58,865 bases of DNA. It comes from Nanobdellota archaeon (GTDB lineage: Archaea; Nanobdellota; Nanobdellia; Woesearchaeales; GW2011-AR9). Positions 18,894-38,486 of the stretch are shown here, piece after piece. Where the stretch lies: positions 1-58,865 of the forward strand of contig JBBSWB010000041.1 of assembly GCA_038046465.1 (NCBI GenBank). Direction: 5' to 3'. Numbering within the stretch: the first letter of the stretch is position 1; each line of letters opens with the position of its first letter. Both the position numbers and the translations under genes were made by a program. Under the pieces are notes generated by a model, which was given only the letters and a program-made list of their open reading frames with translations, searched no databases and was not told the DNA's origin.

Positions 18894-21701
18894 TTACCTT
18901 CTTCTTTTAAGGTAAATGATTACAAAGGCAGCAATAATCACAACTAAAGCGATTGCTACTACCCAAGGCCAAGTTATTTTCTGTGCAGCTTCTCCGGCAA
19001 CTTCGCCAGCAGGTACTTCACCGGCAACTTCTCCGGCAGGTACTTCACCAGCAGGTACTTCACCAGCAGGTACTTCTGCAGCTGCGCCAACGCCTTTCTC
19101 ACCAATGATAAAGTAGCTAAATCCTGGCGTGGTTGCGGTATAATGGACATAAGTTCCATCATCCTTGACAAAAGTAGTTCCCAATTCAGTCCATTTACTA
19201 TCAACATAGCGGTAGATAGCAACTTGGTTTTGAGTTAATCCTTTTGCAGTTAACCAGGTTTTTTCAACCTTAAAGTCGATTACTGCATCTTTAATGTTAT
19301 CCTCTTTTAAAGCAACCCCTTTAGTAATCTCTATATTTTTGTAGACTGCGCCGCTGAAGCTTGCCATAGAGCTTGGTAAACCATCTACTTTAGCAACTTT
19401 CACCCAGGCACCATAAACCGTGCTAGGGGCTACGAAAGATACCTCAGTAACACCAACTACACCATTATCAACTTCGACTGTTGCGGTTTCACCAGCATTG
19501 ATGGATGCCCATACTTCTTTACCGAATTGGCCCGTAATTCCAGCAGATGAACCTCCGCCAGATCCGCTTGTACCTGAACCGCTGGTAGTATCGGAATCTG
19601 TTGCAAAAGTAACCGACTCAGTAACATTATTGGACAATTCATCAACACACCGCATATTAAAAGTATAACTAGTCCCAGCAGTTAAACCGGTATAAGTTAA
19701 AGTGTAAGATGAACCGGAGCCCGTAATACTGCCTTGCCCTTTAGTGTCTTCACAATAGATTACATCAGTAGCCGTAGCAACATCCAGCACTAATTTGCTG
19801 GTAGTTGAACTGCTTGATCTGGTCACAGTCGTAGCAGGAGCAGTATAATCTGTATAAAACGTAATGGTTTCTGTTGCATTTTGGTTATTGCCATGTGATC
19901 CGCCGACCCCCCCAGCACTATCATTGACAAAGATAGTAACGGTGTTGTTACCTTCTGCAAGTCTGGACACATTGTAAGAAAATACCCAACTTGTGTATTT
20001 ACCGTAAGCATTTGCAAGGGTATTTGGTCGTTGAGCAAAGACGGTTACATTAAAGTCTGCACCACTAGCATTATTAAACATTAAAATTACTGCCGATATG
20101 TTAGTCAGGTTTAAGTTAGCGGTAACGTTAAAGGTGGCGTTATCTGAATGCAGGTTAAACGGTCTTCCATTACTAGTTGAAGGGTGAGTAACATTTATCC
20201 AGGAATTAAGGTTAAAAGTAAGCGTCTCTGTAGCATTTCGGTTATCCAAACTATCATTAACCCAAATGGTTACGCTGTTAGTCCCTGGATGTAAGGTTGA
20301 AATATTATAGCTAGGAGACCACCAAGTAAAACCATTGTTAGTTACGCCTTTTCCTCCCTGTTCATCAACAACATCAAGCGTATAGTTGAAATCCTTTCCG
20401 CTGGCATTATCAAACTGTAAAATGACATATTTAATTTCAGCGCTTCTTGTACCAGTAAAGTTTCCAGCAACGGAAAGATTAAATGTCTTGTTGCCAGTAC
20501 TGTAGTTGTAAATCACTCCCGATGTATTTATAGAAAGTTTAGTCGTACTTAAATTCAACCAAGTAACATTTAACTGCCTATTTACTTCAAAAGAGGCTGT
20601 TTGTGATTGGTTTATGTTGCCTTTGGAATCATTTACCCACAATCTAACCGTTCGCGTTCCTGGACGCAGCATGGAAAGATTATAACTAAGATTTGCAAGT
20701 ATAGTTGCAGTATCCCCATGAGCAACAGGTATACTAATATTAAAACTACCGACAGTTGCATCAGTATTGTTATTAAACATCAAATAAATAGTATCAATCC
20801 AAGTAATGTTACCATTTATGGAAACATTGATAGAGAAATTACTCATACCATTATTATATGGTCTTCCAGTACCCCACCCAAATAATTTGCCATCGGGGCT
20901 ACCTACAATAGTGGTATTAAATGGTGTATTAAGGGTGAATGTAAAAGTTTCAGTACTATTCAGAAGGCCAAAGTTATCGTAAGCAAATATCCTTACGGTG
21001 TGTGTTCCAGCATGAAGTGCAGAAACGTTATAACTTACATTCCAATCAGTAAGGGAATTATTTCTAGCTATTGTTGAGTTAAACCCAAACTCCAATGCAT
21101 AAGTTCCATTGGAAAAGCTAAATGTCATGTTACGGGCTACTCTTGCCGGATAATCTTTAATTGTTGCGTGAAAAGTTATATTACCCGTAGTAATAGTATA
21201 AGCGGGAGTCCCCGTTGGTGATACAATTGTAACGTTAGGTGGAGAATTATCTACTGACACGTGTTCATTATGTCGACTAGTAACGTTATTGCATGCCCAT
21301 TCAAAAGACATATTTTGAGCGCAAAAAGTTAAGTTATAAACGCCATTACGCAGAGCTGATGAAATAAACCCTTTTGTTGCATTTAAAGTCCAGGTAGTAT
21401 TCCAATTAGTTTGGTTGCCAGTGGTGTTGGTAACGGTGACGTTTAACTCTAAGCTATTAGTTGCCATCAAATACCATAAAAATGAGACATTAGTTACATT
21501 ATCAGCATTTGTATATACGCTTAAGTTTGAATAGTTACCGGTAACATTCACGTTCGGACCGGGAGACCTGCCCTCAAACATCTCCGGGGAAAATAAAGTT
21601 ATATCTGCCCTGCTATTTAAAATAATTAAACCACTTGAATAAACCATAACAGCAAAAGCTAATATTAAAACCAACCAAATAATAAATGATTTCGTTTTCA
21701 T
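18894..21701 (-). CDS. Large N-glycosylation-rich cell-surface protein (signal peptide, repeated Ig-like modules, PGF-type C-terminal region, TM anchor)
   Basis: 935 aa with an N-terminal hydrophobic signal. Dozens of N-x-S/T sequons are present. Modules recur, ending in ..GT.TV.I.VNDS.GN.N.TET.TF.LN. The C-terminus carries TTPGFSYFIIGEK, a VPAGE repeat and a TM helix followed by KRRR. Confidence 0.8.
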   Translation of the reverse strand: MKTKSFIIWLVLILAFAVMVYSSGLIILNSRADITLFSPEMFEGRSPGPNVNVTGNYSNLSVYTNADNVTNVSFLWYLMATNSLELNVTVTNTTGNQTNWNTTWTLNATKGFISSALRNGVYNLTFCAQNMSFEWACNNVTSRHNEHVSVDNSPPNVTIVSPTGTPAYTITTGNITFHATIKDYPARVARNMTFSFSNGTYALEFGFNSTIARNNSLTDWNVSYNVSALHAGTHTVRIFAYDNFGLLNSTETFTFTLNTPFNTTIVGSPDGKLFGWGTGRPYNNGMSNFSINVSINGNITWIDTIYLMFNNNTDATVGSFNISIPVAHGDTATILANLSYNLSMLRPGTRTVRLWVNDSKGNINQSQTASFEVNRQLNVTWLNLSTTKLSINTSGVIYNYSTGNKTFNLSVAGNFTGTRSAEIKYVILQFDNASGKDFNYTLDVVDEQGGKGVTNNGFTWWSPSYNISTLHPGTNSVTIWVNDSLDNRNATETLTFNLNSWINVTHPSTSNGRPFNLHSDNATFNVTANLNLTNISAVILMFNNASGADFNVTVFAQRPNTLANAYGKYTSWVFSYNVSRLAEGNNTVTIFVNDSAGGVGGSHGNNQNATETITFYTDYTAPATTVTRSSSSTTSKLVLDVATATDVIYCEDTKGQGSITGSGSSYTLTYTGLTAGTSYTFNMRCVDELSNNVTESVTFATDSDTTSGSGTSGSGGGSSAGITGQFGKEVWASINAGETATVEVDNGVVGVTEVSFVAPSTVYGAWVKVAKVDGLPSSMASFSGAVYKNIEITKGVALKEDNIKDAVIDFKVEKTWLTAKGLTQNQVAIYRYVDSKWTELGTTFVKDDGTYVHYTATTPGFSYFIIGEKGVGAAAEVPAGEVPAGEVPAGEVAGEVPAGEVAGEAAQKITWPWVVAIALVVIIAAFVIIYLKRRR
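18989..19077. repeat. In-frame tandem repeat (about 15-nt units) encoding (E)VPAGE x about 6 near the C-terminal anchor
   Basis: ccagcaggtacttca-type units, read directly from the sequence. Confidence 0.8.
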
Positions 21702-26879: not shown

Positions 26880-27497
26880 GTGCCAGCAAAAAAAATTCCT
26901 TCGGACCGATTGATCCAAATTGTTAGCCCTATGCGGGTTAAGTATAAAGACGTCTTCAGCATAAAAGCATTCTATGAAGCTTTACACGAATGGTTATTAG
27001 AATACGAATGGAAAGATTTGGAAGAGGGATCAGATAAATATGAACGCTTTTATGGAGAGAGAGTCCGGCAAGACCGCTCCAAAGAAATTTGGATTAGGTG
27101 GCGTACTTGTAAAAAAGCTCCGGACGCAGATTATCTAACTTATTATTTGGATTTTGATTTTCACAGCCCAGCCATCGTAACGATGGAAGTGATTAAAGAA
27201 GGTAAAAAATTAAAGACTAATAAAGGAGAACTTGAACTCACTATAAGAGCCTTCATCGAAGAGAATTATAAAGAAACTATGGAAGGGCATCCATTTCTAA
27301 AACATTTTAAAGATTTATTTTCAAAAAGAATCTACAACAAAACTATTGTAGAACGAAAGAAAGAATTATACCGGGAAGTTTATGCCCTGCAGACCTTTAT
27401 CAAACAATGGTTCAAGTTGAAGAGATACCAGCCTTACGAAGATACAAAAACGCTGTTTGCCAGTGAAGCTTATCCTTCGCATTTGAAAGAGAAATAG
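26880..27497 (+). CDS. Hypothetical protein (205 aa)
   Basis: Intact ORF starting at a GTG about 25 nt downstream of a TATA-like ATTTATATA. An alternative ATG lies at 26931. Confidence 0.5.
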   Translation: MPAKKIPSDRLIQIVSPMRVKYKDVFSIKAFYEALHEWLLEYEWKDLEEGSDKYERFYGERVRQDRSKEIWIRWRTCKKAPDADYLTYYLDFDFHSPAIVTMEVIKEGKKLKTNKGELELTIRAFIEENYKETMEGHPFLKHFKDLFSKRIYNKTIVERKKELYREVYALQTFIKQWFKLKRYQPYEDTKTLFASEAYPSHLKEK

Positions 27498-27552
27498 ATA
27501 TTAAAAAACACAACAACAACAAAGTTTTTAAAGTTATAAAGTCAAGATAAAA

Positions 27553-28116
27553 TTGCCCATGGAAAGAGAAGTAAAAAATTTAAATATTCTCAGTCAGTTT
27601 TGCGAAGATTTCTGCACGATTATTAACAAACATTGCAAATATATTGTGGTGTCAGGATTTGTTGCTATTGCTTCAGGAAGAACCAGAGGCACAGAAGATA
27701 TCGATTTAATCATGGAAAGAGTTGATTTTAACAGATTTAAAACAATCTTTGCAGACCTGAAACGGAGCGGATTTGTTTGCATGCAATCAGCTGACGTGAA
27801 AGAGATTTATGATTATTTAACAGAAAACCTCTCGGTAAGATTTACTCGAAAAAATAAACCTTTACCGGAGATGGAAGTAAAATTTGCCAAGGACGAATTA
27901 GACAATTACCAATTAAATACTAAAGTAAAATTAGAACTTACCGGCTTAGGAGTATGGTTCAGTAATATCAACGTGAACCTCGCTTTCAAAGAAGAACTTT
28001 TAAAAAGCCCAAAAGATTTAGAAGATGCTAAACATTTAAGAATTGTTTACTCTGAATTGGTTAACGAAAAAGAAATTAATGAAATAAAAAAAATGATTAA
28101 ACGGTTAAGATTATGA
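27553..28116 (+). CDS. Minimal nucleotidyltransferase-fold protein (AbiEii/DUF-type NTase-like)
   Basis: GFVAIASGRTRGTEDIDLIM fits the G[SG]-x(9-13)-D.D polymerase-beta-like NTase signature. Confidence 0.5.
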   Translation: MPMEREVKNLNILSQFCEDFCTIINKHCKYIVVSGFVAIASGRTRGTEDIDLIMERVDFNRFKTIFADLKRSGFVCMQSADVKEIYDYLTENLSVRFTRKNKPLPEMEVKFAKDELDNYQLNTKVKLELTGLGVWFSNINVNLAFKEELLKSPKDLEDAKHLRIVYSELVNEKEINEIKKMIKRLRL

Positions 28117-28349
28117 GAGAATCCCATTTAGGTCAAATAACAAGATGGGCTAATTTTGTTAGAAGCAATCCGGAATGGAGAGAGGCCCACAATGAGTTTA
28201 TTAATGCTCTTTTTGATAGCCACGAAAAGATTATTAAAACATTGCTTAAAACTAAGCATGGAAAAAAGAAAATAATCAAACTATACGGGATTAAAAACAC
28301 CAAGGGATATGATTGGTTAAATCACAAAAAAACTAAAAAAATGCATTAA
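28113..28349 (+). CDS. Hypothetical small basic protein (78 aa), translationally coupled to 27553..28116
   Basis: 4-nt ATGA overlap with the upstream gene. Confidence 0.45.
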   Translation: MRESHLGQITRWANFVRSNPEWREAHNEFINALFDSHEKIIKTLLKTKHGKKKIIKLYGIKNTKGYDWLNHKKTKKMH

Positions 28350-28411: not shown

Positions 28412-29152
28412 TTATTCTACGTCAAGGAAGAAATAGTAGGTTTCCGTACCACCTACTCCCGTCGTATTTACTGGCACTATTAACTCATAATCAACCAGAG
28501 TTAAGTTCCTAAAATCCCTTTCGTCGGCATCAACAGCTACCCCAAAGGCAAAATCAATTTCCTGTGCTGGCGAAGCTGTATCAGTAAAAACGCCACTTTT
28601 GTAAATGCTGGTATTCAGAACGCACCCCGCACATTGCGCCGTGCCGGTATCCTCGTATGCTCTTAAACCTACTGCGGGCACACTAGTTACTGTCGCAATG
28701 GTGGCAGTACCAGTAAATACCGACGTTGCTGAATCAACATCCGCTGTTGAAAATCCCCAAGCGCTGTCAGCGTTTCCTGCAGATGCTGCAAGAAGATTGC
28801 TAAAATCAAAAGCTGAATCGGGCGCGGCAAAAACACTCTTGATCTGGCTATTCGTTACAGAGCCAAAGTCATAGAGGACATCAGAACCGAATCCTAATTT
28901 TAAAGCACTGGTTACCTGACCAAAATAACCCGCCCACTTACCTGTGCTCTTTGTTGCAGTCACGTTTAGCTGGGTTACGTTGCCTGCCCGGGCATTATGC
29001 GAACCGGCGCCCGTATTGGTTAAACGACCGTTAGCATACGCCGTTACAGAACCCCCAGAAACTGCATCGCTTTTATCAACTGCAACAGCCATAAAAGCTA
29101 ACATTAAAAAAACTATCGTAGTCAAAACTAATCCCGCCATCTTTTTTTCCAT
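28412..29152 (-). CDS. Secreted protein carrying the module shared with 33110..34123 and 35007..36599
   Basis: Signal peptide (..LMLAFMAVAV/DKS), G/S/T/A-rich composition, and a C-terminal ..DYELIVPVN....TYYFFLDVE motif. Visibly more GC-rich than neighbours. Confidence 0.65.
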   Translation of the reverse strand: MEKKMAGLVLTTIVFLMLAFMAVAVDKSDAVSGGSVTAYANGRLTNTGAGSHNARAGNVTQLNVTATKSTGKWAGYFGQVTSALKLGFGSDVLYDFGSVTNSQIKSVFAAPDSAFDFSNLLAASAGNADSAWGFSTADVDSATSVFTGTATIATVTSVPAVGLRAYEDTGTAQCAGCVLNTSIYKSGVFTDTASPAQEIDFAFGVAVDADERDFRNLTLVDYELIVPVNTTGVGGTETYYFFLDVE

Positions 29153-29627
29153 ACTCTCACCCTCTCCTTATTTTTTATATTTTTATTTACTCGCCTTACT
29201 TTTTACTTTTAGTTTGTTTTTTATTTTGTGTTCAGTTTAGTAAGGTAAGTTAGCGTAAAACAGAAGAGCAATATAAACATTTATTTGATGAGTTATATTC
29301 TTTAAAAAACCGCTAATCGGTCCTATTTTTTACAAATCAATTTACCCATTATATATATTAAAATTTAATGAATGCGTTGTCTATTTTAATGATGATTTGA
29401 ATTGATTATTTAATTATTAATTATTTTAAGAATATACTTTTAACATAAAAAAACATTTTTATCATTTAACTATTTTTGTCATTTTTATTAGTTAAAATAC
29501 TTTTATAATAAATAACACAAAACAACTTTTGTTATAGAAATACTAAAGAGTAGAAAAGGTTATAATCACCTTACTTTCAAACAGTAGTTGCCCCATAGTT
29601 GCTCTATAAAAATATTAATGGTTAAAA

Positions 29628-29852
29628 ATGAAAAGAGTTAATATCAGTTTAAGAAAAGATGTGCATTCCCAGGCAAAAATAATTTGTATTCTAAAAAATG
29701 TTCATCTAAATAAATATCTTGAACTATGCATTGAAAAAGCAATAAAAGAAGATCAAAAAATTTTACAGGTGCTTAAGATAGAAAACAACTTCTTTAAAAT
29801 AGAAAAAAACCCGATCGAGATTGAAAAGAGCTCAAATAAAGAAGAAGGATAA
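29628..29852 (+). CDS. Ribbon-helix-helix (CopG-like) small protein
   Basis: N-terminal MKRVNISLRKDVHSQAK has a beta-strand-plus-helices pattern typical of RHH regulators. Confidence 0.4.
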   Translation: MKRVNISLRKDVHSQAKIICILKNVHLNKYLELCIEKAIKEDQKILQVLKIENNFFKIEKNPIEIEKSSNKEEG

Positions 29853-29918
29853 GCGAGTACTTTAATTTTAGTTTAATAAAATCAAATGGTGATGGGATGT
29901 TAAAACTGTGGCAAGTAC

Positions 29919-32858
<2,940 letters not shown>

Positions 32859-32867
32859 AAAATACTA

Positions 32868-33039
32868 AGAGCCTATCCCGTTAGGGCGTTCAGCAGCATA
32901 AGGTCGAACGTCTTAAATTTACACAGCAAGGGCGTCACGGGGGGTTGTCCCATACGGGGACGCAGCCCTAGCAAATTCACAATGCGATGCGTTCGAATCT
33001 GCTGAACGCCTCTACTTTTTACCTATTGGGATAGGCTCT
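32868..33039 (+). ncRNA. Rod-like GC-rich structured element D (candidate ncRNA, strand uncertain)
   Basis: Nested perfect stems AGAGCCTATCCC/GGGATAGGCTCT (12 bp), GGCGTTCAGCAG/CTGCTGAACGCC (12 bp), TCGAACG/CGTTCGA and GGGCGTC/GACGC. The core is far more GC-rich than the flanks. Confidence 0.4.
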
Positions 33040-33109
33040 AAACAAATAACTACAAATAACTAAAGCGATAAATAATAAAAGCAATAATATTAAAATGATT
33101 TATGTTTAA

Positions 33110-34123
33110 ATGATTTTTTCCAATAATCCTAAAATTCCGAGAAAAAAAATATTTACAGCAACTGCATTACTTATATTTTTATTATTATTGTTACTATCTG
33201 CGTTCTCAGTTATTAGTTTTATTGACTTAGCCGTAAGTTCAACCAGTATTACTTTTAGCAACAACAACCCCATAGAAGGAGAACTGGTAAATATCAGCGC
33301 AATGATTAGCAACCTTGGCAATGAAACTGCAACAAACGCAACCCTTCAATATTTAGATGATAAAAAAGAAATAAGTAATGTTACCATTAATGTACCTAAT
33401 TTCTCTTCAGTTGCTGCCTCCCTGTTTTGGCCCGCAGAAATCGGCCCTAACAATATTAGCATTATAATCGACCCCGATAATAGTATAGCCGAATCTGACG
33501 AAACAAACAACTATGCTTCCAAGAAAATAGCTATAAATGGATATCATACTTATTTTGGAAAAGCTGCAGGTTATCTTGCTTTAGGAATAAACTCAAAATT
33601 TTTGTTTCAGGCAAAACTACCAGCATGTAATATTCTCATGGCAGATACGGACAGCAACGTTGATTTTAGTTCTCTTCAGGCCATAGGAAAGAAAAAAAAT
33701 GCAGGAAACTCCAACAGGGATTTTGAAGAAATAGATACACTATTAGGAATGGCTACTTTTTCTGATTCTGTTACTAATCTTTTTAGCGTGAAGCATGGGG
33801 GAAAAATGGTTCCAAAACAAGTAGAAACATTTACTATTTTTGGCACAACCATTCCTGATGTTCCGGTTATAAACAGTACAAATAGTTCTGCTTTTCTAAC
33901 AGGAATATTGTGGGACATTTCCGATGATACTGTGGGAAAGAACGGAGAGTTTGATATAATTAATCGTGAAGATTTAATCTTTGTTACAAAAATAAACCCT
34001 TCACAACAGGGGCAGTATGGCGTTTATGATTACGAAATTAAAATTCCTGCTCTCTTGCGGGAATATAAGCCCGGCAACCCAACGGTTGATTTTTTTATTG
34101 ATATTGATTCTTGTCTTTCATAA
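33110..34123 (+). CDS. Membrane-anchored surface protein with CARDB-like domain and the shared C-terminal module
   Basis: N-terminal TM helix, then a CARDB-like segment (P.EGE.V.ISA.ISN.GN..A....L..... ..E.DE.NN). The C-terminal YDYEIKIPA......VDFFIDIDSC resembles 28412..29152 and 35007..36599. Confidence 0.65.
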   Translation: MIFSNNPKIPRKKIFTATALLIFLLLLLLSAFSVISFIDLAVSSTSITFSNNNPIEGELVNISAMISNLGNETATNATLQYLDDKKEISNVTINVPNFSSVAASLFWPAEIGPNNISIIIDPDNSIAESDETNNYASKKIAINGYHTYFGKAAGYLALGINSKFLFQAKLPACNILMADTDSNVDFSSLQAIGKKKNAGNSNRDFEEIDTLLGMATFSDSVTNLFSVKHGGKMVPKQVETFTIFGTTIPDVPVINSTNSSAFLTGILWDISDDTVGKNGEFDIINREDLIFVTKINPSQQGQYGVYDYEIKIPALLREYKPGNPTVDFFIDIDSCLS

Positions 34124-34286
34124 AAATTAGTTCAAGCACCACTAATTTTTTTCTTGTAAAAAGTTTTTAATTTCTTTCTTTTTATTAAGACATGCTCGGG
34201 GCATGAGTTTCAGCGGTGATTTAATTAATTTAAAGTAGAACTAATTCAAAACAAGAGCATAAATTTAAAGAATAAATTTCTTAACT

Positions 34287-34508
34287 TCACTTTCTTCTTT
34301 TAACTTTCTTAGATTTAACTCTAGACTTAGCTAATTTAATTAATTTTTTAACTTTAGAATGCTTTCCTTTACCAGAAGCTTTTCTGCTCTTCTTCCTTAA
34401 ACTATTGCTGCGAGTTGATTTCTTTTTAATAGATTTCTTTTTAACTGCTTTCTTTTTAGTAGCTTTTCTCTTAACTACTTTTCTTCGAATACTCTTTTTT
34501 TTAGCCAT
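34287..34508 (-). CDS. Lysine/arginine-rich small basic protein (73 aa)
   Basis: Uninterrupted ORF, more than half K/R. No Shine-Dalgarno is visible, so it could be a low-complexity artefact. Confidence 0.35.
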   Translation of the reverse strand: MAKKKSIRRKVVKRKATKKKAVKKKSIKKKSTRSNSLRKKSRKASGKGKHSKVKKLIKLAKSRVKSKKVKRRK

Positions 34509-34540
34509 CTAGTTTTAACTCTTTTATTTTTTAACGTTTT

Positions 34541-34790
34541 AAAGACTGGACTCGGTGACATAGTGCCTTAAACAACTCCCTTCATCAACTTAACCTTTAG
34601 GGTTATTTTAAAGGTGATCTACGTCGCTTCACAGACAAGCTTAACAAGCACAGGTTTCGTGCAGTGAGTTATAGTCCAGACACCGCATTAATGGCGAGCA
34701 CTTGTAAGAGGCTGCTATGATGGCATCCTTTTCAGGACAACCGAAATGTCCGCTTTTCTACTAACACCAGGAAAGTAGATTAAGTTAAAA
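34541..34790. ncRNA. GC-enriched intergenic block, candidate structured RNA of unknown class
   Basis: About 250 nt with clearly higher GC than the flanks and no ORF. Local helices include CTGGACT/AGTCCAG, GGACA/TGTCC, GCAC/GTGC and GCTT/AAGC. Confidence 0.3.
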
Positions 34791-35006
34791 GAAGTCTTTC
34801 TTTAAATATTTGTCGTATCATCAAAATAATGATTACAATAATCGCAATAAAGTAGTTCTTCCTTTCTTGCGCAAAGTTGTTTTGTCTTGGTTGATTTTTT
34901 AAATTTAACACTTTGTATGTAATAGGTTAACATGCCCGGCTTTTAAATGAAATGTTATTTTTGCCCAATCGGAGCAAAAAACGAGCCCCGTTCCAGAGCT
35001 GACCTA

Positions 35007-36599
35007 TTACATACGCTTTTTTAATTTTACACTTTTTCTAAATTTTCCTACCCTGAGCCCGATTAAAAATAAAATTAGGAATATGGTAATTACCAATAAT
35101 AATAGCAATACTGGGATTCCAAAAAGGTAGAATGTTCTTTTATCCATCAGCGCAGCCATGCCGACAAGAGCTTCTGAAAGCGGCGGACCGGGTTCAACGA
35201 CAGTAAAAGATTCAGTTGCAGTCGTAAAGGAGCTGCCATAAATTACCTTTAATGCGTATAGGTATTGCCCAACAGTAATATTTTGACTAAGTGGAATGAT
35301 TTTGGAGAAAGAGACTTGATTCCACATGGTGATTCTTTCTTCTTCGTCGTAGATTATGTTGTTGTTCATGTCCATAATTAAGTGAATTAAGGTTACATCT
35401 GCAGGATAAGTTTTTTTAAGATTAAGCAAGGTAATAATTGCCTTAAGCTCTTCTCCGGGAAAATAGGTTTTCTTCGGCAAGTCCAGGCTGGCATCAAAAA
35501 TAACTTCTTTAGGTTCGACTTCCAATATGATATATGCGGCTTTACTTATGCTTCTTAAATCATTTTCAGCAAAGAATACCATTGCTCCAGTATAAATTCC
35601 GGGCTTAATATTTAAGTAAGGATTAAAAATAAAAGTAATTTCTTTTTCTCGTCCCTGTGGCAAATAAAAGGCATTGGGAGAAACTGTGAGTAAAGCCGAT
35701 AAAGCAGTAGTTGTTTTAATTAACAGGTCTGCTTTCCCAGTATTTAGCACCCGGATTTTTTTTTCTAAACGTTCTCCTTCAGTTAAGGCAACTTTAATTA
35801 ACTCTTCGCTTAATTCAAACGACATTTCTAGACGCGCTTCTTTTTTAATCTCGCCCGCTCCGCCAACAGAAATATAAACTGGCACTGGAACGGATACGGC
35901 AGCCTCGCAATCGCTAAAAAAATAATAAGTAACAAAACTTCCATTGACGGGCACCAGCATTTGATAATCATGGGTTTTATTATCAAAACCTTTTGTGTCC
36001 AAGGAAATATGGCTTACAAAAACTAAAGAATTGGAAATATTCAACAAGCCAAGATCAAAGGTAGTATTGCCCGGAGAACCGAATACTTTAGTATATGACG
36101 TAGGAATATTAGCAATGGCAGAAGAACCAACCGTAAATGTTTTTGTATTTGCAAAAATCTGCGACCCTGATTCTAAATGGCTGGCATTAAGCTGGAGATA
36201 ATGATCAATAGCTTCCTTGCGGCCAGCAGAAATATCCTTAAAAGCAATATTGCCATTAGTGCTTGCGTAAATCTCTTCGCCCACGCAGGGAAAAGTGACA
36301 TTAAGTTCAGTTATATTCCCTTTCCGGGCGAGGCTGGAAGGAGTTTGATTAAACGAGGAATCCTCAAAAATTTCTCCGTAGAAGCCCTGCCAGTAGCCGG
36401 ATTCTTCCGTTAGGGAAAGATTAACTTCTTCCACCGCCCCAGCGTTTGAAACCCTAGATGTTGCTCCTCCAGTGACATTGCTAACGGGCGTGAAGGAAAT
36501 AAGAAAAAAAATTAGCAGGAAGAAAACAAGCAGAAGAAACAAGATAATATAATTTATGTTTCTTGATATTACCTTTTTTAATATTGTTTTTTTTAACAA
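35007..36599 (-). CDS. Surface protein: N-terminal TM/signal, shared module, beta-rich domain, C-terminal TM anchor
   Basis: 530 aa. Contains ..SGYWQGFYGEIF.. and ..YQMLVPVNGSFVTYYFFSDCE motifs paralogous to 28412..29152. The C-terminal TM helix is followed by basic residues. Confidence 0.7.
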   Translation of the reverse strand: MLKKTILKKVISRNINYIILFLLLVFFLLIFFLISFTPVSNVTGGATSRVSNAGAVEEVNLSLTEESGYWQGFYGEIFEDSSFNQTPSSLARKGNITELNVTFPCVGEEIYASTNGNIAFKDISAGRKEAIDHYLQLNASHLESGSQIFANTKTFTVGSSAIANIPTSYTKVFGSPGNTTFDLGLLNISNSLVFVSHISLDTKGFDNKTHDYQMLVPVNGSFVTYYFFSDCEAAVSVPVPVYISVGGAGEIKKEARLEMSFELSEELIKVALTEGERLEKKIRVLNTGKADLLIKTTTALSALLTVSPNAFYLPQGREKEITFIFNPYLNIKPGIYTGAMVFFAENDLRSISKAAYIILEVEPKEVIFDASLDLPKKTYFPGEELKAIITLLNLKKTYPADVTLIHLIMDMNNNIIYDEEERITMWNQVSFSKIIPLSQNITVGQYLYALKVIYGSSFTTATESFTVVEPGPPLSEALVGMAALMDKRTFYLFGIPVLLLLLVITIFLILFLIGLRVGKFRKSVKLKKRM

Positions 36600-36606
36600 T
36601 TCCTCT

Positions 36607-38256
36607 TTACCTCTTCTTTCTTATTGATAGTATTAGTTTTATTACAATTAAAATAATGATAACTAACACTAACAGCTTATAATTAAATGTTTTAAACGCA
36701 AAATCAAATTCCCGAGTCATCGACTTTAACAGGATGTTTTCTCTTTCTCCATATCTAACCCGCGCCGTTACAGTTGGATTGTCTTCAATATCCATTTCCT
36801 CCAGAAGCGCTTTAATCTTAAACAAATTCTTCTGCCCGGGCTTAATTTTTTGCTGTTCAGCGCCCAAAGTCACTTTCTCGCTGGCAATAATTAAATCAAC
36901 AATCTCAGCATCAGCATAGACATCTTTCTCGCCTTCATTTTTTACGATTAATTCAAATCGTTTCGTCCCTTTATTGTAAACCAGGCTTTGAATGGATATT
37001 TTTGACGAATCCTCAACGGCAACAACATCCAAATTCAAGGTCTTCGCCAATAGTTTAGTTAAGGAATTAGCGCTTTCTCCGAAGATAATTTTGCTCTCAA
37101 CTATTAGATTTTTATCAAGATAAGGCGTTAAGTCAAGGCTATAAACTTTAGTCAAAGTATCGCCTTCGTTAAGAAAGAAGGCTTTTTCATCACCAACTTC
37201 CGCAATGGCAGTCCCGTCTGCTTTAATTTGATGAGACAATGCCTGAGCATAAGTATAAACCGCGCCTTTATTTTTATAACTGACTTCCAGCTGCCTTGAA
37301 AGAGTATTGTAATGAACTGCTTCAATATCAATTTCCGAGTCATATTCCGGCAGAGGAAAGACATCAAGAGCGTAGATCTGCGAATTTCTTCCTTGCCCAT
37401 ACTTAAGAAGAATTTTTATTCCCGTATCTTCTCGTATTCTTTTGGCGTTGGCAAATAGGTCGTACCCAATAACAATCCCAGCTCTTACATCGGTATCCCG
37501 GATAAAATCTATAACTGGTTGGGGAACGTTGCTTGTTCCAATAAACAGGGCCGGGAATTCATTATTAAAAAAACCCAGTTCCAGAGTTTCTCCATCTGTA
37601 AGCAAGACCTGTTTTGTTGGCTTTTTATTAATAAATTTCTTTACAATCTCAATATTGTCTTGGTATCGGTCGCCTTTATTTATAATTAAAGGATTTAGAA
37701 CGCCGAGTTCTTCCTTAACTGCCCTGTTAAGATGACCATAAAAGAGAATATTATCTGCCGAAGCAGACAAAAAAGAAAAGAGGACATCAACATTTTCAGC
37801 ATCTGCAAAAAGAACAAAAGAATTTGTAAGCAAGGCATAAGGAGCTACTGAAATAGCATCATAGCCCAAACTGCCGTCAATCACTATAAAATTAGCAATG
37901 CCCTTCTCATCAGCTGCCTTCTTAGCAAACTCTAAATTGGTCTTTTGCGCATCTAAAGAGAGAAATTTTTCTACTTTAAAGCCCTGTTTTTCTAGCTGAA
38001 GCTGATAACCAAAAATAAGAGGTTCTTTAGATTCAATGAGCAAAATATCAACAGCCCCTCTGTTAAGAACCTCTTCGATCAACTGCAGACCTTGCGTTTC
38101 TTTAGCAACATAATGCGCATCTAAACCGTTCAACTTGGCATAAAGAATTCCTGTATATATATCCCGCCAGTCTTTTGAATTAATTACGACTTGATCCGCA
38201 GCACTGACAATAGGAAGAAGCAATAAGAATAATAACAATAAAAAATACCTTTTCAT
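36607..38256 (-). CDS. Surface protein with three alpha/beta repeats (cell-wall-binding-repeat-2-like), beta-rich domains and C-terminal TM anchor
   Basis: 549 aa with signal peptide LLLLPIVSA. Three similar segments of about 100 aa (VVINSKDW.., FIVIDGSLGYDAI.., VLLTDGETL..). Terminal TM helix plus KKR. Confidence 0.65.
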   Translation of the reverse strand: MKRYFLLLLFLLLLPIVSAADQVVINSKDWRDIYTGILYAKLNGLDAHYVAKETQGLQLIEEVLNRGAVDILLIESKEPLIFGYQLQLEKQGFKVEKFLSLDAQKTNLEFAKKAADEKGIANFIVIDGSLGYDAISVAPYALLTNSFVLFADAENVDVLFSFLSASADNILFYGHLNRAVKEELGVLNPLIINKGDRYQDNIEIVKKFINKKPTKQVLLTDGETLELGFFNNEFPALFIGTSNVPQPVIDFIRDTDVRAGIVIGYDLFANAKRIREDTGIKILLKYGQGRNSQIYALDVFPLPEYDSEIDIEAVHYNTLSRQLEVSYKNKGAVYTYAQALSHQIKADGTAIAEVGDEKAFFLNEGDTLTKVYSLDLTPYLDKNLIVESKIIFGESANSLTKLLAKTLNLDVVAVEDSSKISIQSLVYNKGTKRFELIVKNEGEKDVYADAEIVDLIIASEKVTLGAEQQKIKPGQKNLFKIKALLEEMDIEDNPTVTARVRYGERENILLKSMTREFDFAFKTFNYKLLVLVIIILIVIKLILSIRKKR

Positions 38257-38367: not shown

Positions 38368-38486
38368 GCCCCAGTAGCTTAGTGGCTATAGCACCTGACT
38401 TGTAGCCAACTATCTGCTATGTTTCCAACGAAATATAAGCATAGTAAGATATCAGGAGATCGGGAGTTCAACTCTCCCCTGGGGCT
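38368..38486 (+). tRNA. tRNA-Thr (anticodon TGT) with a canonical 46-nt intron at 37/38 (38405..38450)
   Basis: GCCCCAG TA GCTT AGTGGCTA TAGC A CCTGA CTTGTA [46 nt] A TCAGG AGATC GGGAG TTCAACT CTCCC CTGGGGC T. Central BHB helix CTTG/TAAG with 3-nt bulges. Confidence 0.9.

Follow-up and report, generated by a model that had tools for sequence, protein, structure and literature searches.

Little is settled about how DPANN archaea build their envelopes and make contact with other cells; the proteins involved are nearly all 'hypothetical'. A cluster of such genes lies in a contig of 58,865 nt, referred to here in its entirety as the window, from a 1.18-Mb DPANN (Woesearchaeales-type) groundwater MAG. 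A sequence-only reading had described six surface or secreted proteins plus an RHH gene and had proposed that they serve host recognition and attachment. What do these genes encode, and is attachment to a host what holds them together? All seven ORFs were recovered at the positions given by that reading; the tally was corrected to five envelope proteins (g1, g3, g4, g6 and g7) and one RHH protein (g2). The genes and their parts are as follows.

28412-29152, minus strand: g1, 246 aa
29628-29852, plus strand: g2, 74 aa
29919-32858, plus strand: g3, 979 aa
30960-31238, plus strand: FN3 domain of g3, about residues 348-440
31296-31793, plus strand: helical stalk of g3, about residues 460-625
32154-32237, plus strand: TM helix of g3, residues 746-773
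32238-32855, plus strand: helical cytoplasmic tail of g3, 206 aa
33110-34123, plus strand: g4, 337 aa
33224-33520, plus strand: CARDB domain of g4, residues 39-137 (Pfam)
33533-34120, plus strand: C-terminal shared domain of g4, residues 142-337 (hhalign)
34287-34508, minus strand: g5, a Lys-rich ORF, 73 aa
35007-36599, minus strand: g6, 530 aa
35037-35138, minus strand: TM helix of g6, residues 488-521
35904-36473, minus strand: shared domain of g6, membrane-distal head, residues 43-232
36607-38256, minus strand: g7, 549 aa
36613-36681, minus strand: TM anchor of g7, residues 526-548
36703-37344, minus strand: two beta-sandwich domains of g7, residues 305-518 (AF2 model and Foldseek)
37402-38193, minus strand: three CWB2-like repeats of g7, residues 22-285 (AF2 model)

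Judged from their sequences, the five envelope proteins are predicted to be exported or membrane-anchored. Pfam-type family searches matched no enzyme family with any cluster protein, in keeping with the earlier remark that catalytic motifs are lacking, and PHROG and PADLOC searches returned nothing for the five envelope proteins. A viral or defence island was considered and rejected, the sole PHROG match being that of g2 to an Arc-like repressor (0.005). The locus is neither an enzyme pathway, a virus nor a defence system. In the window, the cluster is flanked by ordinary housekeeping genes.

Three of the proteins, g1, g4 (in its C-terminal half) and g6 (as its N-terminal head), have one domain of ~200 aa in common. 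The relationship is seen in a blastp comparison of g1 with g6 (E 2e-12), in the match of an HMM built from the g1 family alignment (A2, 56 sequences) to g6 (2.6e-25), and in an hhalign comparison of the g4-family C-terminus with the g1 family (probability 99%, E 2.7e-18). The domain has no Pfam family, comprises 1,758 clusters at 50% identity, and carries the signature 'WQGYYGN...YYFYVEL', ending in A2 with the invariant C-terminal beta-strand YYFYVEL. It stands alone in g1, a secreted protein with a Sec-type signal peptide (about residues 1-25) and no anchor. Signal peptides of the g1 family display a charged n-region, an h-region and an AxA-type site (e.g., AFA followed by EP) in the A2 alignment; an archaeal type IV pilin was rejected for g1 because this signal is Sec-type with an AxA site and not class III. 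Secreted g4 consists of a signal peptide, CARDB and then the shared domain; Pfam CARDB (PF07705; E 7e-12, 45.9 bits against a threshold of 22.7) bears out its earlier description as CARDB-like and is also matched by the g4 orthologues in loci L003 and L007. A hydropathy scan places a hydrophobic segment only at the N-terminus of g1 and g4 and at both ends of g6 (10-44 and 488-521) and g7 (1-26 and 519-548), as expected for the N-terminal signal and C-terminal anchor previously assigned to the latter two.

As g6-type proteins have an anchor of their own, the shared domain must be more than a tag for anchoring: g6 is a type-I membrane protein that runs from the shared-domain head through two Ig-like stalk domains (weak Pfam Ig-like matches) and a TM helix to a short basic tail. 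The stalk and anchor of g6 recur in a paralogue (C1:107-1567) whose head differs, and a Pacearchaeota homologue (P0012) possesses an additional cytoplasmic HerA/DUF87 ATPase. Among 152 shared-domain matches in g7-centred loci, 108 are stand-alone, 22 are N-terminal fusions, 17 are C-terminal fusions and five are internal. An AF2 model of g1 (pLDDT 86.6, pTM 0.78) lacks regular secondary structure over residues ~24-72, at moderate to high pLDDT. Structure prediction with Foldseek, proposed as a check alongside the sequence-only reading, yielded a match for g7, described below, but none for the shared domain: the g1 model has no match in PDB or BFVD, the best PDB E-value being 2.2.

The genome encodes an AglB/STT3 oligosaccharyltransferase, and the shared-domain family is 2.5-fold enriched in sequons (3.55 per 100 aa versus 1.43 expected), three of which occupy conserved alignment columns. 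Sequons are 3-fold depleted in the g7 family (0.20 per 100 aa versus 0.62 expected), and 21 of its 40 members have none. The suggestion that several cluster proteins are rich in N-x-S/T holds for g1 (5 observed versus 2.1 expected), g4 (8 versus 4.9) and g6 (11 versus 4.4), but not for g3, which is average (11 versus 11.3), nor for g7, which contains none.

The protein g7, encoded 7 bp upstream of g6, begins with a signal peptide, after which come three CWB2-like alpha/beta repeats, two beta-sandwich (Ig) domains and a TM anchor. In its AF2 model (pLDDT 90.9, pTM 0.83), three alpha/beta units of ~90 aa form one compact head. Foldseek retrieved Cwp6 (5j72_A; E 8.2e-7, probability 1.00), whose alignment has the highest TMq of the list (0.36 over 366 columns), while the tandem Ig domains matched transglutaminase C-terminal barrels, RbmA and FimC (E 1e-8 to 1e-7). 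By sequence, g7 scores below threshold against Pfam CW_binding_2 (PF04122; E 0.0064, 17.5 bits versus 24.9), that family is matched at E < 0.01 by 7/40 g7-family members (best 1.9e-6), and a search of PDB with the g7-family profile (A1) did not find CWB2 chains. The predicted g7 head is a CWB2-type fold, a membership that derives from the modelled fold and not from a sequence threshold. None of the 78 g7 homologues is annotated, and most carrier genomes have a single copy.

The remaining two genes form a pair in which g2, a small RHH-like protein, always lies immediately upstream of g3. Matches of g2 to RHH families are weak but consistent: the RHH part of HicB is matched by 15/19 family members (best 4.1e-6; alignment A4), ParG by 9/19 and ParD, CcdA or CopG by others; these matches, taken without comparison to curated thresholds, are all to RHH-fold families. 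The window protein by itself has no Pfam RHH match, and the PDB matches, to ParG and SSV 56B, are weak (E 0.012). The type-I membrane protein g3 (hydrophobic segments 5-29 and 746-773) is ordered as a signal peptide, variable N-domain, two Ig-like domains, FN3, helical stalk, conserved beta domain, TM helix and tail. Its previously noted FN3-like module, along with Ig, is supported at the family level: the A3 profile of the g3 family matches FN3-like PDB chain 3mpc (E 1e-8) and 8pn5 (5.8e-9), and Pfam fn3 and Big_13 are found in 4/14 and 9/14 members, respectively, with the window protein by itself matching only Big_12 (0.0024). The TM helix and cytoplasmic tail were likewise seen. The 'long coiled coil' corresponds to an E/K/L-rich, proline-poor helical stretch of ~165 aa, in which clear heptad periodicity is confined to residues 445-545. 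The pair occurs in about 20 loci, with three tandem copies in L086, and g2 is probably a regulator of g3-g4.

Conservation of these genes was surveyed in 151 high-quality genomes of the phylum. Both g7 and the shared domain occur in 47 of them, and 46 have both (Fisher p = 1.5e-36, a value uncorrected for phylogeny and inflated by shared ancestry). Full-length g3 occurs in 21/151, and 19 of these 21 have g7 (p = 1.5e-9), usually 0.4-25 kb away. The order g7-g6 > < g4-g3-g2 <> g1 is kept in relatives L003/L004, L007, L009 and L012, at 53-57% identity for g7 and 36-37% for g3. In relatives, the stops of g4 and g6 are 6-13 bp apart, g3 abuts g4, and in L003, L007, L009 and L012 the stop and start codons of g7 and a shared-domain gene overlap. 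Two stretches of the window, 32868-33039 (element D) and 34124-35006, account for the interruptions noted previously and are insertions confined to its lineage. The gene cluster lies beside DNA ligase in L003, L007 and L009 but in another genomic context in G000; it has been relocated as a unit. Locus-based counts are biased toward g7 neighborhoods because loci were gathered via g7, for which whole-genome searches provide a partial correction. In five DPANN-sized genomes, every listed shared-domain gene was on the contig of g7, and 19/39 lay within 12 kb of it versus ~2% expected; in a Methanoperedens genome, three of four lay within 6 kb. In 20/83 loci, the overlapping pairs among them, g7 has a shared-domain gene in the same orientation no more than 300 bp away, and in 63/83 none directly adjoins it. 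Across genomes, co-inheritance of g7 and the shared domain is almost perfect, and their genes lie close to one another. Scattering of the genes in relatives, which the sequence-only reading had named as a result that would refute it, was looked for and the opposite found, and the idea of a coherent, enzyme-free locus of extracellular or membrane-anchored proteins has stood.

The g7 and shared-domain module was not found in 15 sister genera of the window's family, nor in about two-thirds of the sampled phylum genomes. Methanoperedens, ANME-2 and Methanosarcinaceae genomes of 1.8-3.4 Mb do carry it. Patchy in the family and present in these distant genomes, it is therefore an accessory and probably transferable surface-coat or display module.

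With about even confidence, we favor a self-contained accessory cell-surface glycoprotein module, built from a hub protein, g7, and a glycosylated shared-domain coat. The shared-domain proteins would be N-glycosylated and make the outer coat layer, with g1 as the bulk subunit, g6 as the membrane-tethered subunit and g4 as a subunit carrying a CARDB passenger domain. Given stalks of equal length in g7 and g6, the unglycosylated CWB2 head would sit level with the shared-domain heads, where, by analogy, it may bind the shared domain or the glycans of the proteins that lack an anchor and so retain these proteins on the cell. This arrangement is modeled on the CWB2-bearing base and outer partner of C. 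difficile SlpA/Cwp proteins. The Ig/FN3 domains of g3 would be projected on its helical stalk; acting via the cytoplasmic tail, g3 could be a receptor or adhesin, and the RHH protein g2 would control its expression. Such a coat could mediate contact with whatever the cell touches, a host perhaps included, and the block would be gained and lost together. Because the glycoprotein fold has no match among solved structures, the cluster is probably an undescribed surface coat.

The locus might instead be a dedicated host-recognition apparatus of an episymbiont, with the heads and the Ig/FN3 domains of g3 binding the host surface and the CWB2 head of g7 its wall polymer. The proteins are extracellular, nonenzymatic and glycosylation-prone, with the CARDB, Ig and FN3 domains typical of adhesins; g3 is the fastest-evolving gene of the cluster (37% identity versus 62-72% for housekeeping genes); and the head swap between g6 and its paralogue reveals modularity. 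CWB2 modules of Firmicutes bind wall polysaccharides, and the g7 clade of the window is sister to a clade from Methanosarcinales, which are suggested partners of Woesearchaeota. However, a module of the same layout resides in the Methanoperedens, ANME-2 and Methanosarcinaceae genomes, which are not episymbionts, and the sister genera and other sampled genomes that lack it presumably have the lifestyle in common. Nor are the cluster genes more diverged than their flanks when compared with a 79%-identical relative (78-81% versus 77-90%). With these distributions and the CWB2 fold of g7, the specific tie to episymbiotic attachment proposed earlier is not supported; this explanation appears unlikely, a general accessory surface-coat or display module fits the evidence better, and cell-to-cell attachment is one conceivable use of the coat. 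That unrelated envelope genes lie together by chance, without acting jointly, would be conceivable in a dense small genome with numerous surface-protein genes and ordinary housekeeping flanks, but is scarcely credible for a block whose order is kept at 37-57% identity, that moved as a unit, that unites two families in 46 genomes and in which three genes have one domain in common.

Two further possibilities concern what the coat is made of. In one, g7 is the membrane-anchored lattice former of the principal S-layer, with shared-domain proteins decorating it; CWB2 triads reportedly tile the C. difficile SlpA lattice in this manner. A C-terminal TM anchor, Ig stalk and distal oligomerizable head resemble euryarchaeal S-layer glycoproteins, and g7 is mostly single-copy, but a protein missing from sister genera and from all but 47 of 151 genomes lacks the lineage-wide presence expected of a principal S-layer, archaeal S-layer proteins are typically glycosylated whereas g7 is strongly sequon-depleted, and another large Ig-rich anchored protein encoded in the window (18894-21701) could equally be the S-layer protein. 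This reading is accordingly quite improbable. The sequence-only reading had named homology to housekeeping S-layer proteins as a result that would count against attachment; the fold of g7, with its role in Firmicute S-layer and cell-wall anchoring, touches on that clause but does not establish a housekeeping S-layer. In the other, which we consider highly doubtful, stand-alone shared-domain proteins polymerize into a glycosylated fiber with g6/g7 as its membrane base and large C-terminally tagged proteins as tip or decoration; donor-strand exchange could proceed through the ~45-residue extended segment after the signal peptide. Tandem arrays of two to six paralogous secreted subunits of 240-260 aa recall cannulae, TasA/AbpA and thread loci, nine loci have an S26-type signal-peptidase-like gene (from an SGPSMQP motif) close by, and both the irregular yet well-modeled N-terminal segment of g1 and the invariant YYFYVEL strand would suit strand exchange. 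Against this, Foldseek at E below 2 gave no solved fiber subunit (TasA, AbpA, thread, CanA or pilins), the signal peptides are of the Sec type rather than class III, the g1 monomer is modeled complete and confidently without a partner strand, and the neighborhood shows neither a conserved assembly ATPase nor a conserved usher.

The preferred accessory coat module provides a bounded, testable parts list, consisting of a single-copy CWB2-type hub, an uncatalogued co-inherited domain family, and a stalked Ig/FN3 protein with its regulator. With it, the CWB2 fold, known from the walls of Firmicutes, would also occur on membrane-anchored proteins in peptidoglycan-free archaea, and its presence in both DPANN and methane-cycling Methanosarcinales bears on gene exchange between them. 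A bolder proposal, which we put forward as a long shot, is that CWB2-headed g7 and the shared domain together make up an unrecognized archaeal protein-display system, one serving as dock and the other as displayed unit, that has passed by horizontal transfer between Woesearchaeales and Methanosarcinales (Methanoperedens, ANME-2) and is used in symbiont-host surface contact. If true, the occurrence of the module in symbiont and candidate host would reflect that contact.

Several known systems resemble parts of this locus. The C. difficile CWB2 proteins (SlpA high-molecular-weight subunit, Cwp6, Cwp8; PF04122) resemble g7 in that their head is made of three tandem alpha/beta repeats, and they too are exported surface proteins associated with a second outward-facing partner. 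The differences are that g7 is archaeal, from an organism without peptidoglycan or PSII polymer; that its head is carried on two Ig domains and its own C-terminal TM anchor with no wall-polymer docking; that its sequence similarity is marginal, at the subthreshold score given above; and that its partner, the shared domain, has no relationship to the low-molecular-weight subunit of SlpA. Sulfolobales SlaB, with beta-sandwich domains, a coiled-coil stalk and a C-terminal TM helix, is similar in overall build to g3. In contrast to SlaA/SlaB, g3 comes with a 206-aa cytoplasmic tail and an RHH gene of its own upstream, its occurrence is patchy (21/151), and it has no detectable sequence relation to SlaB, the PDB matches of its profile being FN3 chains only. 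Donor-strand fiber subunits (TasA, AbpA bundling pili, Sulfolobus threads and CanA of Pyrodictium cannulae) resemble the g1 type in being ~25-kDa, beta-rich proteins that are exported by Sec, are prone to glycosylation and have their genes in tandem arrays of paralogues, but g1 lacks fold similarity to them in the PDB Foldseek search and has no Pfam Peptidase_M73/TasA match. SPEARE proteins of Nanohaloarchaeota are DPANN surface proteins for which host contact has been proposed, and each combines a large ectodomain with a single TM helix and a portion in the cytoplasm; they are giant (up to 8,553 aa), and their laminin-G, protease and restriction-endonuclease domains (Hamm et al. 2019, PMC6642349) are not found in the cluster proteins. 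The VARTIG module of Thermococcales is also archaeal, with large Ig-domain surface proteins at its center, variable partners and an unassigned function. Its defining features are a hypervariable C-terminal Ig domain and a polymorphic-toxin-like organization (Makarova et al. 2021, PMC8416519), whereas the present locus conserves a CWB2-type protein together with a non-Ig domain, in a stable order.

The window is the largest (C41) of the 87 contigs of a 1.18-Mb genome that is 93.6% complete and was grouped with ~1-Mb genomes of one archaeal order, and groundwater metagenomes (runs X1-X8) contain 0.99 of the words sampled from the locus. All open reading frames assigned to the 28412-38256 cluster by the sequence-only reading were recovered with the same coordinates; its count of six surface or secreted proteins was revised to five envelope proteins. 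The genes are listed below, where the shared domain denotes a ~200-aa domain (WQGYYGN...YYFYVEL) found in g1, g4, and g6.

Genes of the cluster (window coordinates, strand, length, and description)
g1, 28412-29152, minus strand, 246 aa, shared-domain protein
g2, 29628-29852, plus strand, 74 aa, putative ribbon-helix-helix protein
g3, 29919-32858, plus strand, 979 aa, FN3 protein with helical stretch and TM helix
g4, 33110-34123, plus strand, 337 aa, CARDB protein with shared domain in its C-terminal half
g5, 34287-34508, minus strand, 73 aa, Lys-rich ORF
g6, 35007-36599, minus strand, 530 aa, shared-domain head
g7, 36607-38256, minus strand, 549 aa, CWB2-headed hub protein

By predicted topology from a hydropathy scan, g1 and g4 display a hydrophobic segment at the N-terminus only and g6 and g7 at both the N- and C-termini, while g3 possesses one at the N-terminus and another at residues 746-773 followed by a 206-aa tail, as expected from the TM helix and cytoplasmic tail previously proposed for it. 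The cluster is flanked by ordinary genes encoding PGK, an Obg-like GTPase, YdjM, an SDR, and an oxoacid:ferredoxin oxidoreductase. A further Ig-rich protein of 935 aa (18894-21701, minus strand), encoded 7 kb away from the cluster, scored below threshold for Big_13 and Big_3_3; it may be the main envelope protein of the cell. Upstream of g1, a three-gene unit (26880-28349) includes a 187-aa NTase-like protein with a weak PADLOC match (PDC-M21B, E 0.0014); no family was found for its remaining two genes. Directly upstream of g7, Rfam matched a tRNA over 119 nt (38368-38486) that ARAGORN did not report, the length suggesting an intron.

The fold of g7 was recognized from structure. An AF2 model built with 40 homologues (pLDDT 90.9, pTM 0.83) places a signal peptide first, then three alpha/beta repeats over residues 22-285 and two beta-sandwiches over 305-518, with a TM helix last. 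The N-terminal part matched C. difficile Cwp6 (5j72) in Foldseek with an E of 8e-7 and the top query TM-score of the list, and the beta-sandwich pair retrieved generic tandem Ig-like domains. By sequence, CWB2 was marginal in g7 (17.5 bits vs 24.9 for Pfam), with 7 of 40 relatives matching, and a search of the PDB with the g7-family profile found designed Rossmann proteins only and no CWB2; the fold search was required.

The shared domain unites three of the cluster proteins: blastp aligns g1 with the N-terminal region of g6 (E 2e-12), and a profile-to-profile comparison relates the g1 family to the C-terminal half of the g4 family (99%, E 2.7e-18). An alignment of 56 g1-family sequences begins with a Sec-type signal peptide, continues through conserved AGNVTxL and WQGYYGNVTG motifs and two cysteine positions conserved in most members, and closes with an invariant C-terminal DFQMIV...TYYFYVEL. 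Pfam detected nothing in this family but DUF7096, in 2 of 56 members, and all 116 database relatives are annotated as hypothetical. An exhaustive profile search nevertheless collected 1,758 clusters at 50% identity. The AF2 model of the domain is confident (pLDDT 86.6, pTM 0.78), and Foldseek found no match for it in the PDB (best E 2.2) or among BFVD viral models (best E 0.19). Membership of g1 among the known fibre or pilin subunits was considered and rejected, the signal peptides being of Sec type and the structural comparison with both collections giving nothing below E 0.19.

Formats of the domain were counted over 152 hits within g7-centred loci.

Formats of the shared domain (hits of 152)
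Stand-alone, 108
N-terminal fusion (g6 type, with Ig domains and a TM anchor after the domain), 22
C-terminal fusion (g4 type and giant proteins), 17
Internal, 5

A paralogue (contig C1, 107-1567) combines the g6 stalk and anchor with a different, Ig-like head. In a partial 828-aa protein from Candidatus Pacearchaeota (P0012), a shared-domain head, stalk, and TM segment are followed by a HerA/DUF87-type ATPase on the cytoplasmic side; the window's genome encodes two unfused DUF87 genes on other contigs (C34 and C37).

The CARDB domain of g4 exceeds the Pfam threshold, and g2 with 18 aligned relatives matched ribbon-helix-helix families exclusively (the HicB RHH part in 15 of 19, also ParG, ParD, CcdA, and CopG), in line with its earlier description as RHH-like. 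Weak PDB matches to ParG and SSV 56B (E 0.012) and a PHROG match to an Arc-like repressor (E 0.005) were also obtained for g2. The g3 family (g3 and 13 relatives) contains Ig-like domains, with Big_13 in 9 of 14, and its FN3 domain, already suspected in g3, was retrieved by profile against the PDB (E 1e-8). Beyond FN3 follow an E/K/L-rich helical stretch of ~165 residues, a conserved beta domain, the TM helix, and a variable helical cytoplasmic tail; the supposed long coiled coil holds as a helical stretch, but heptad periodicity is clear only for residues 445-545. An (AAT)11/Asn11 tract in g3 (32001-32037) is unique to the window's genome among 14 aligned homologues, and contigs of all four metagenome runs compared show breaks or loose ends at this tract.

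Rather than being scattered, the genes stay together in relatives: the order g7-g6 > < g4-g3-g2 <> g1 is common to the window and the distant loci L003/L004, L007, L009, and L012, where g7 and g6 overlap by 4-14 nt and identities to the window are 53-57% for g7, 51-55% for g4, 53-61% for g1, and 36-37% for g3. The block follows a DNA ligase gene in L003, L007, and L009; the ligase of the window's genome lies on another contig with unrelated neighbours, which indicates that the block moved as a unit. Two stretches of the window depart from this layout. The ~250-bp g3-g4 spacer (32859-33109), which carries the GC-rich hairpin element D (32868-33039), is specific to the window's lineage, g3 stop and g4 start abutting or overlapping in L003, L007, L009, and L012; a 41-nt piece is 80% identical to contig C77. 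The 883 bp between the convergent g4 and g6 ends (34124-35006) are absent from all relatives, including a 79%-identical one (gap 6-13 bp), and carry g5, to which a paralogous region on contig C54 is 85% identical, and a GC-rich, ORF-free stretch (~34541-34790). Rfam gave nothing credible across both insertions (32800-35100), and the GC-rich stretch had no match. Metagenome contigs hold extra copies around 34300-34800, and in run X1 a diverged second copy accompanies about twice the flanking contig depth at 34454-34814. Depth of the metagenome contigs was low over 28420-31590, a suspected filtering effect.

Among 87 loci fetched through g7, shared-domain genes occur in 56 (one to six per locus), g4-type proteins in 31, and the g2-g3 pair in ~20; a domain gene is co-oriented with g7 within 300 bp in only 20 of 83. 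Clustering of neighbouring ORFs brought up neither an ATPase nor an usher or glycosyltransferase as a conserved partner. The only three recurrent neighbours, none in the window, were a 172-aa protein whose two halves are each HTH-like (27 loci, L062:47-565 among them; a 34% homologue is on contig C1), a 231-aa secreted protein (17 loci), and an S26 signal-peptidase-like gene with an SGPSMQP motif (nine loci, L072:1162-1665 among them). Since these loci had been chosen through g7, the search was extended to whole genomes. From five DPANN-sized genomes 39 domain genes were listed, every one on the same contig as g7, and 19 of the 39 fall within 12 kb of g7, vs ~2% expected; in a 2.6-Mb Methanoperedens genome, 3 of 4 lie within 6 kb.

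Across 151 evenly sampled high-quality genomes of the phylum, g7 and the shared domain were each found in 47 and both in 46 (Fisher p = 1.5e-36, not corrected for phylogeny). Full-length g3 occurs in 21, of which 19 also possess g7, in most cases at a distance of 0.4-25 kb. The single further genome of the window's genus carries g7 as well as the domain, neither is present in 15 other genera of the window's family, and the two again co-occur in Methanoperedens, ANME-2, and Methanosarcinaceae genomes (1.8-3.4 Mb). In a quick, midpoint-rooted g7 tree, the latter form one clade sister to that of the window, both apart from the main Woesearchaeales clade. The module is thus accessory and patchy, and probably transferable. 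Many records labelled [quoted passage not shown] carry organism names unreliable for taxonomy; one of 1.2 Mb (L008) was placed in the window's own genus by genome search.

Identity to L007 is mostly 62-72% for housekeeping proteins (DNA ligase 70, GatB 68, topoisomerase I 65) and lower for cluster proteins (g1 61, g7 57, g4 55, g6 50, g3 37), the g6 head alone aligning because the stalk was replaced or shortened. Relative to the 79%-identical genome, cluster genes have diverged no more than their neighbours. There, g4 is reduced to its last 54 codons beside an IS630-like HTH and DDE_3 transposase pair (L001:2714-3999), and full-length g3 was not seen in a same-genus genome (G025); the g2-g3-g4 arm may therefore have been lost or disrupted there while g7-g6 was kept.

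Glycosylation potential is divided unevenly. An AglB/STT3 gene is present in the genome, and the N-x-S/T richness earlier ascribed to several proteins holds for the shared-domain family (3.55 sequons per 100 aa vs 1.43 expected from shuffles, three positions being conserved in at least half of members). It does not hold for g3, which is neutral, or for the g7 family (0.20 vs 0.62 expected), in which 21 of 40 members, the window's g7 included, lack any sequon.

The best explanation of the locus, to which we give an even chance, is an accessory surface-coat or display module. Its proposed mechanism is based on a sequon-free extracellular g7 with a glycopolymer-binding fold being co-inherited with sequon-heavy partners. 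The shared-domain proteins would constitute a glycosylated outer coat, with g1 as a free subunit, g6 as a tethered one, and g4 as a subunit bearing a CARDB passenger. As the head of g7, like that of g6, is separated from a TM helix by two Ig-like domains, the two would sit at similar height, and the CWB2 head of g7 could retain the anchorless members via their glycans or the domain itself, in logic analogous to C. difficile SlpA with its CWB2-bearing base and outer partner. Reaching further on its helical stalk, and with a cytoplasmic tail, g3 may sense or adhere, and g2 probably regulates it.

Host attachment had been named as the obvious candidate role; the distribution argues against a purely symbiosis-specific one, and a dedicated attachment device is retained as an unlikely alternative. 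That this accessory, patchy module forms the cell's main S-layer appears improbable, and a donor-strand fibre quite improbable, given that Foldseek matched the g1 fold to nothing in the PDB or BFVD below E 0.19. Chance co-location deserves almost no credence against a gene order conserved at 37-57% identity and the 46-genome overlap of g7 and the domain. A provirus or defence island was dismissed, the envelope proteins having no PHROG or PADLOC matches. None of the RNA sequencing runs searched for g7 contained it.

The module has no description that we found in the literature on DUF7096, archaeal CWB2, DPANN cell-wall-binding repeats, or Woesearchaeota with Methanoperedens. It differs from the SPEARE surface proteins of Nanohaloarchaeota (PMC6642349) and from the VARTIG Ig-protein module of Thermococcales (PMC8416519). 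Surface-protein anchoring and display modules are a known kind of system, to which this locus is assigned; it combines a CWB2-type fold, here where it would not be expected, with a domain family that has no solved relative.
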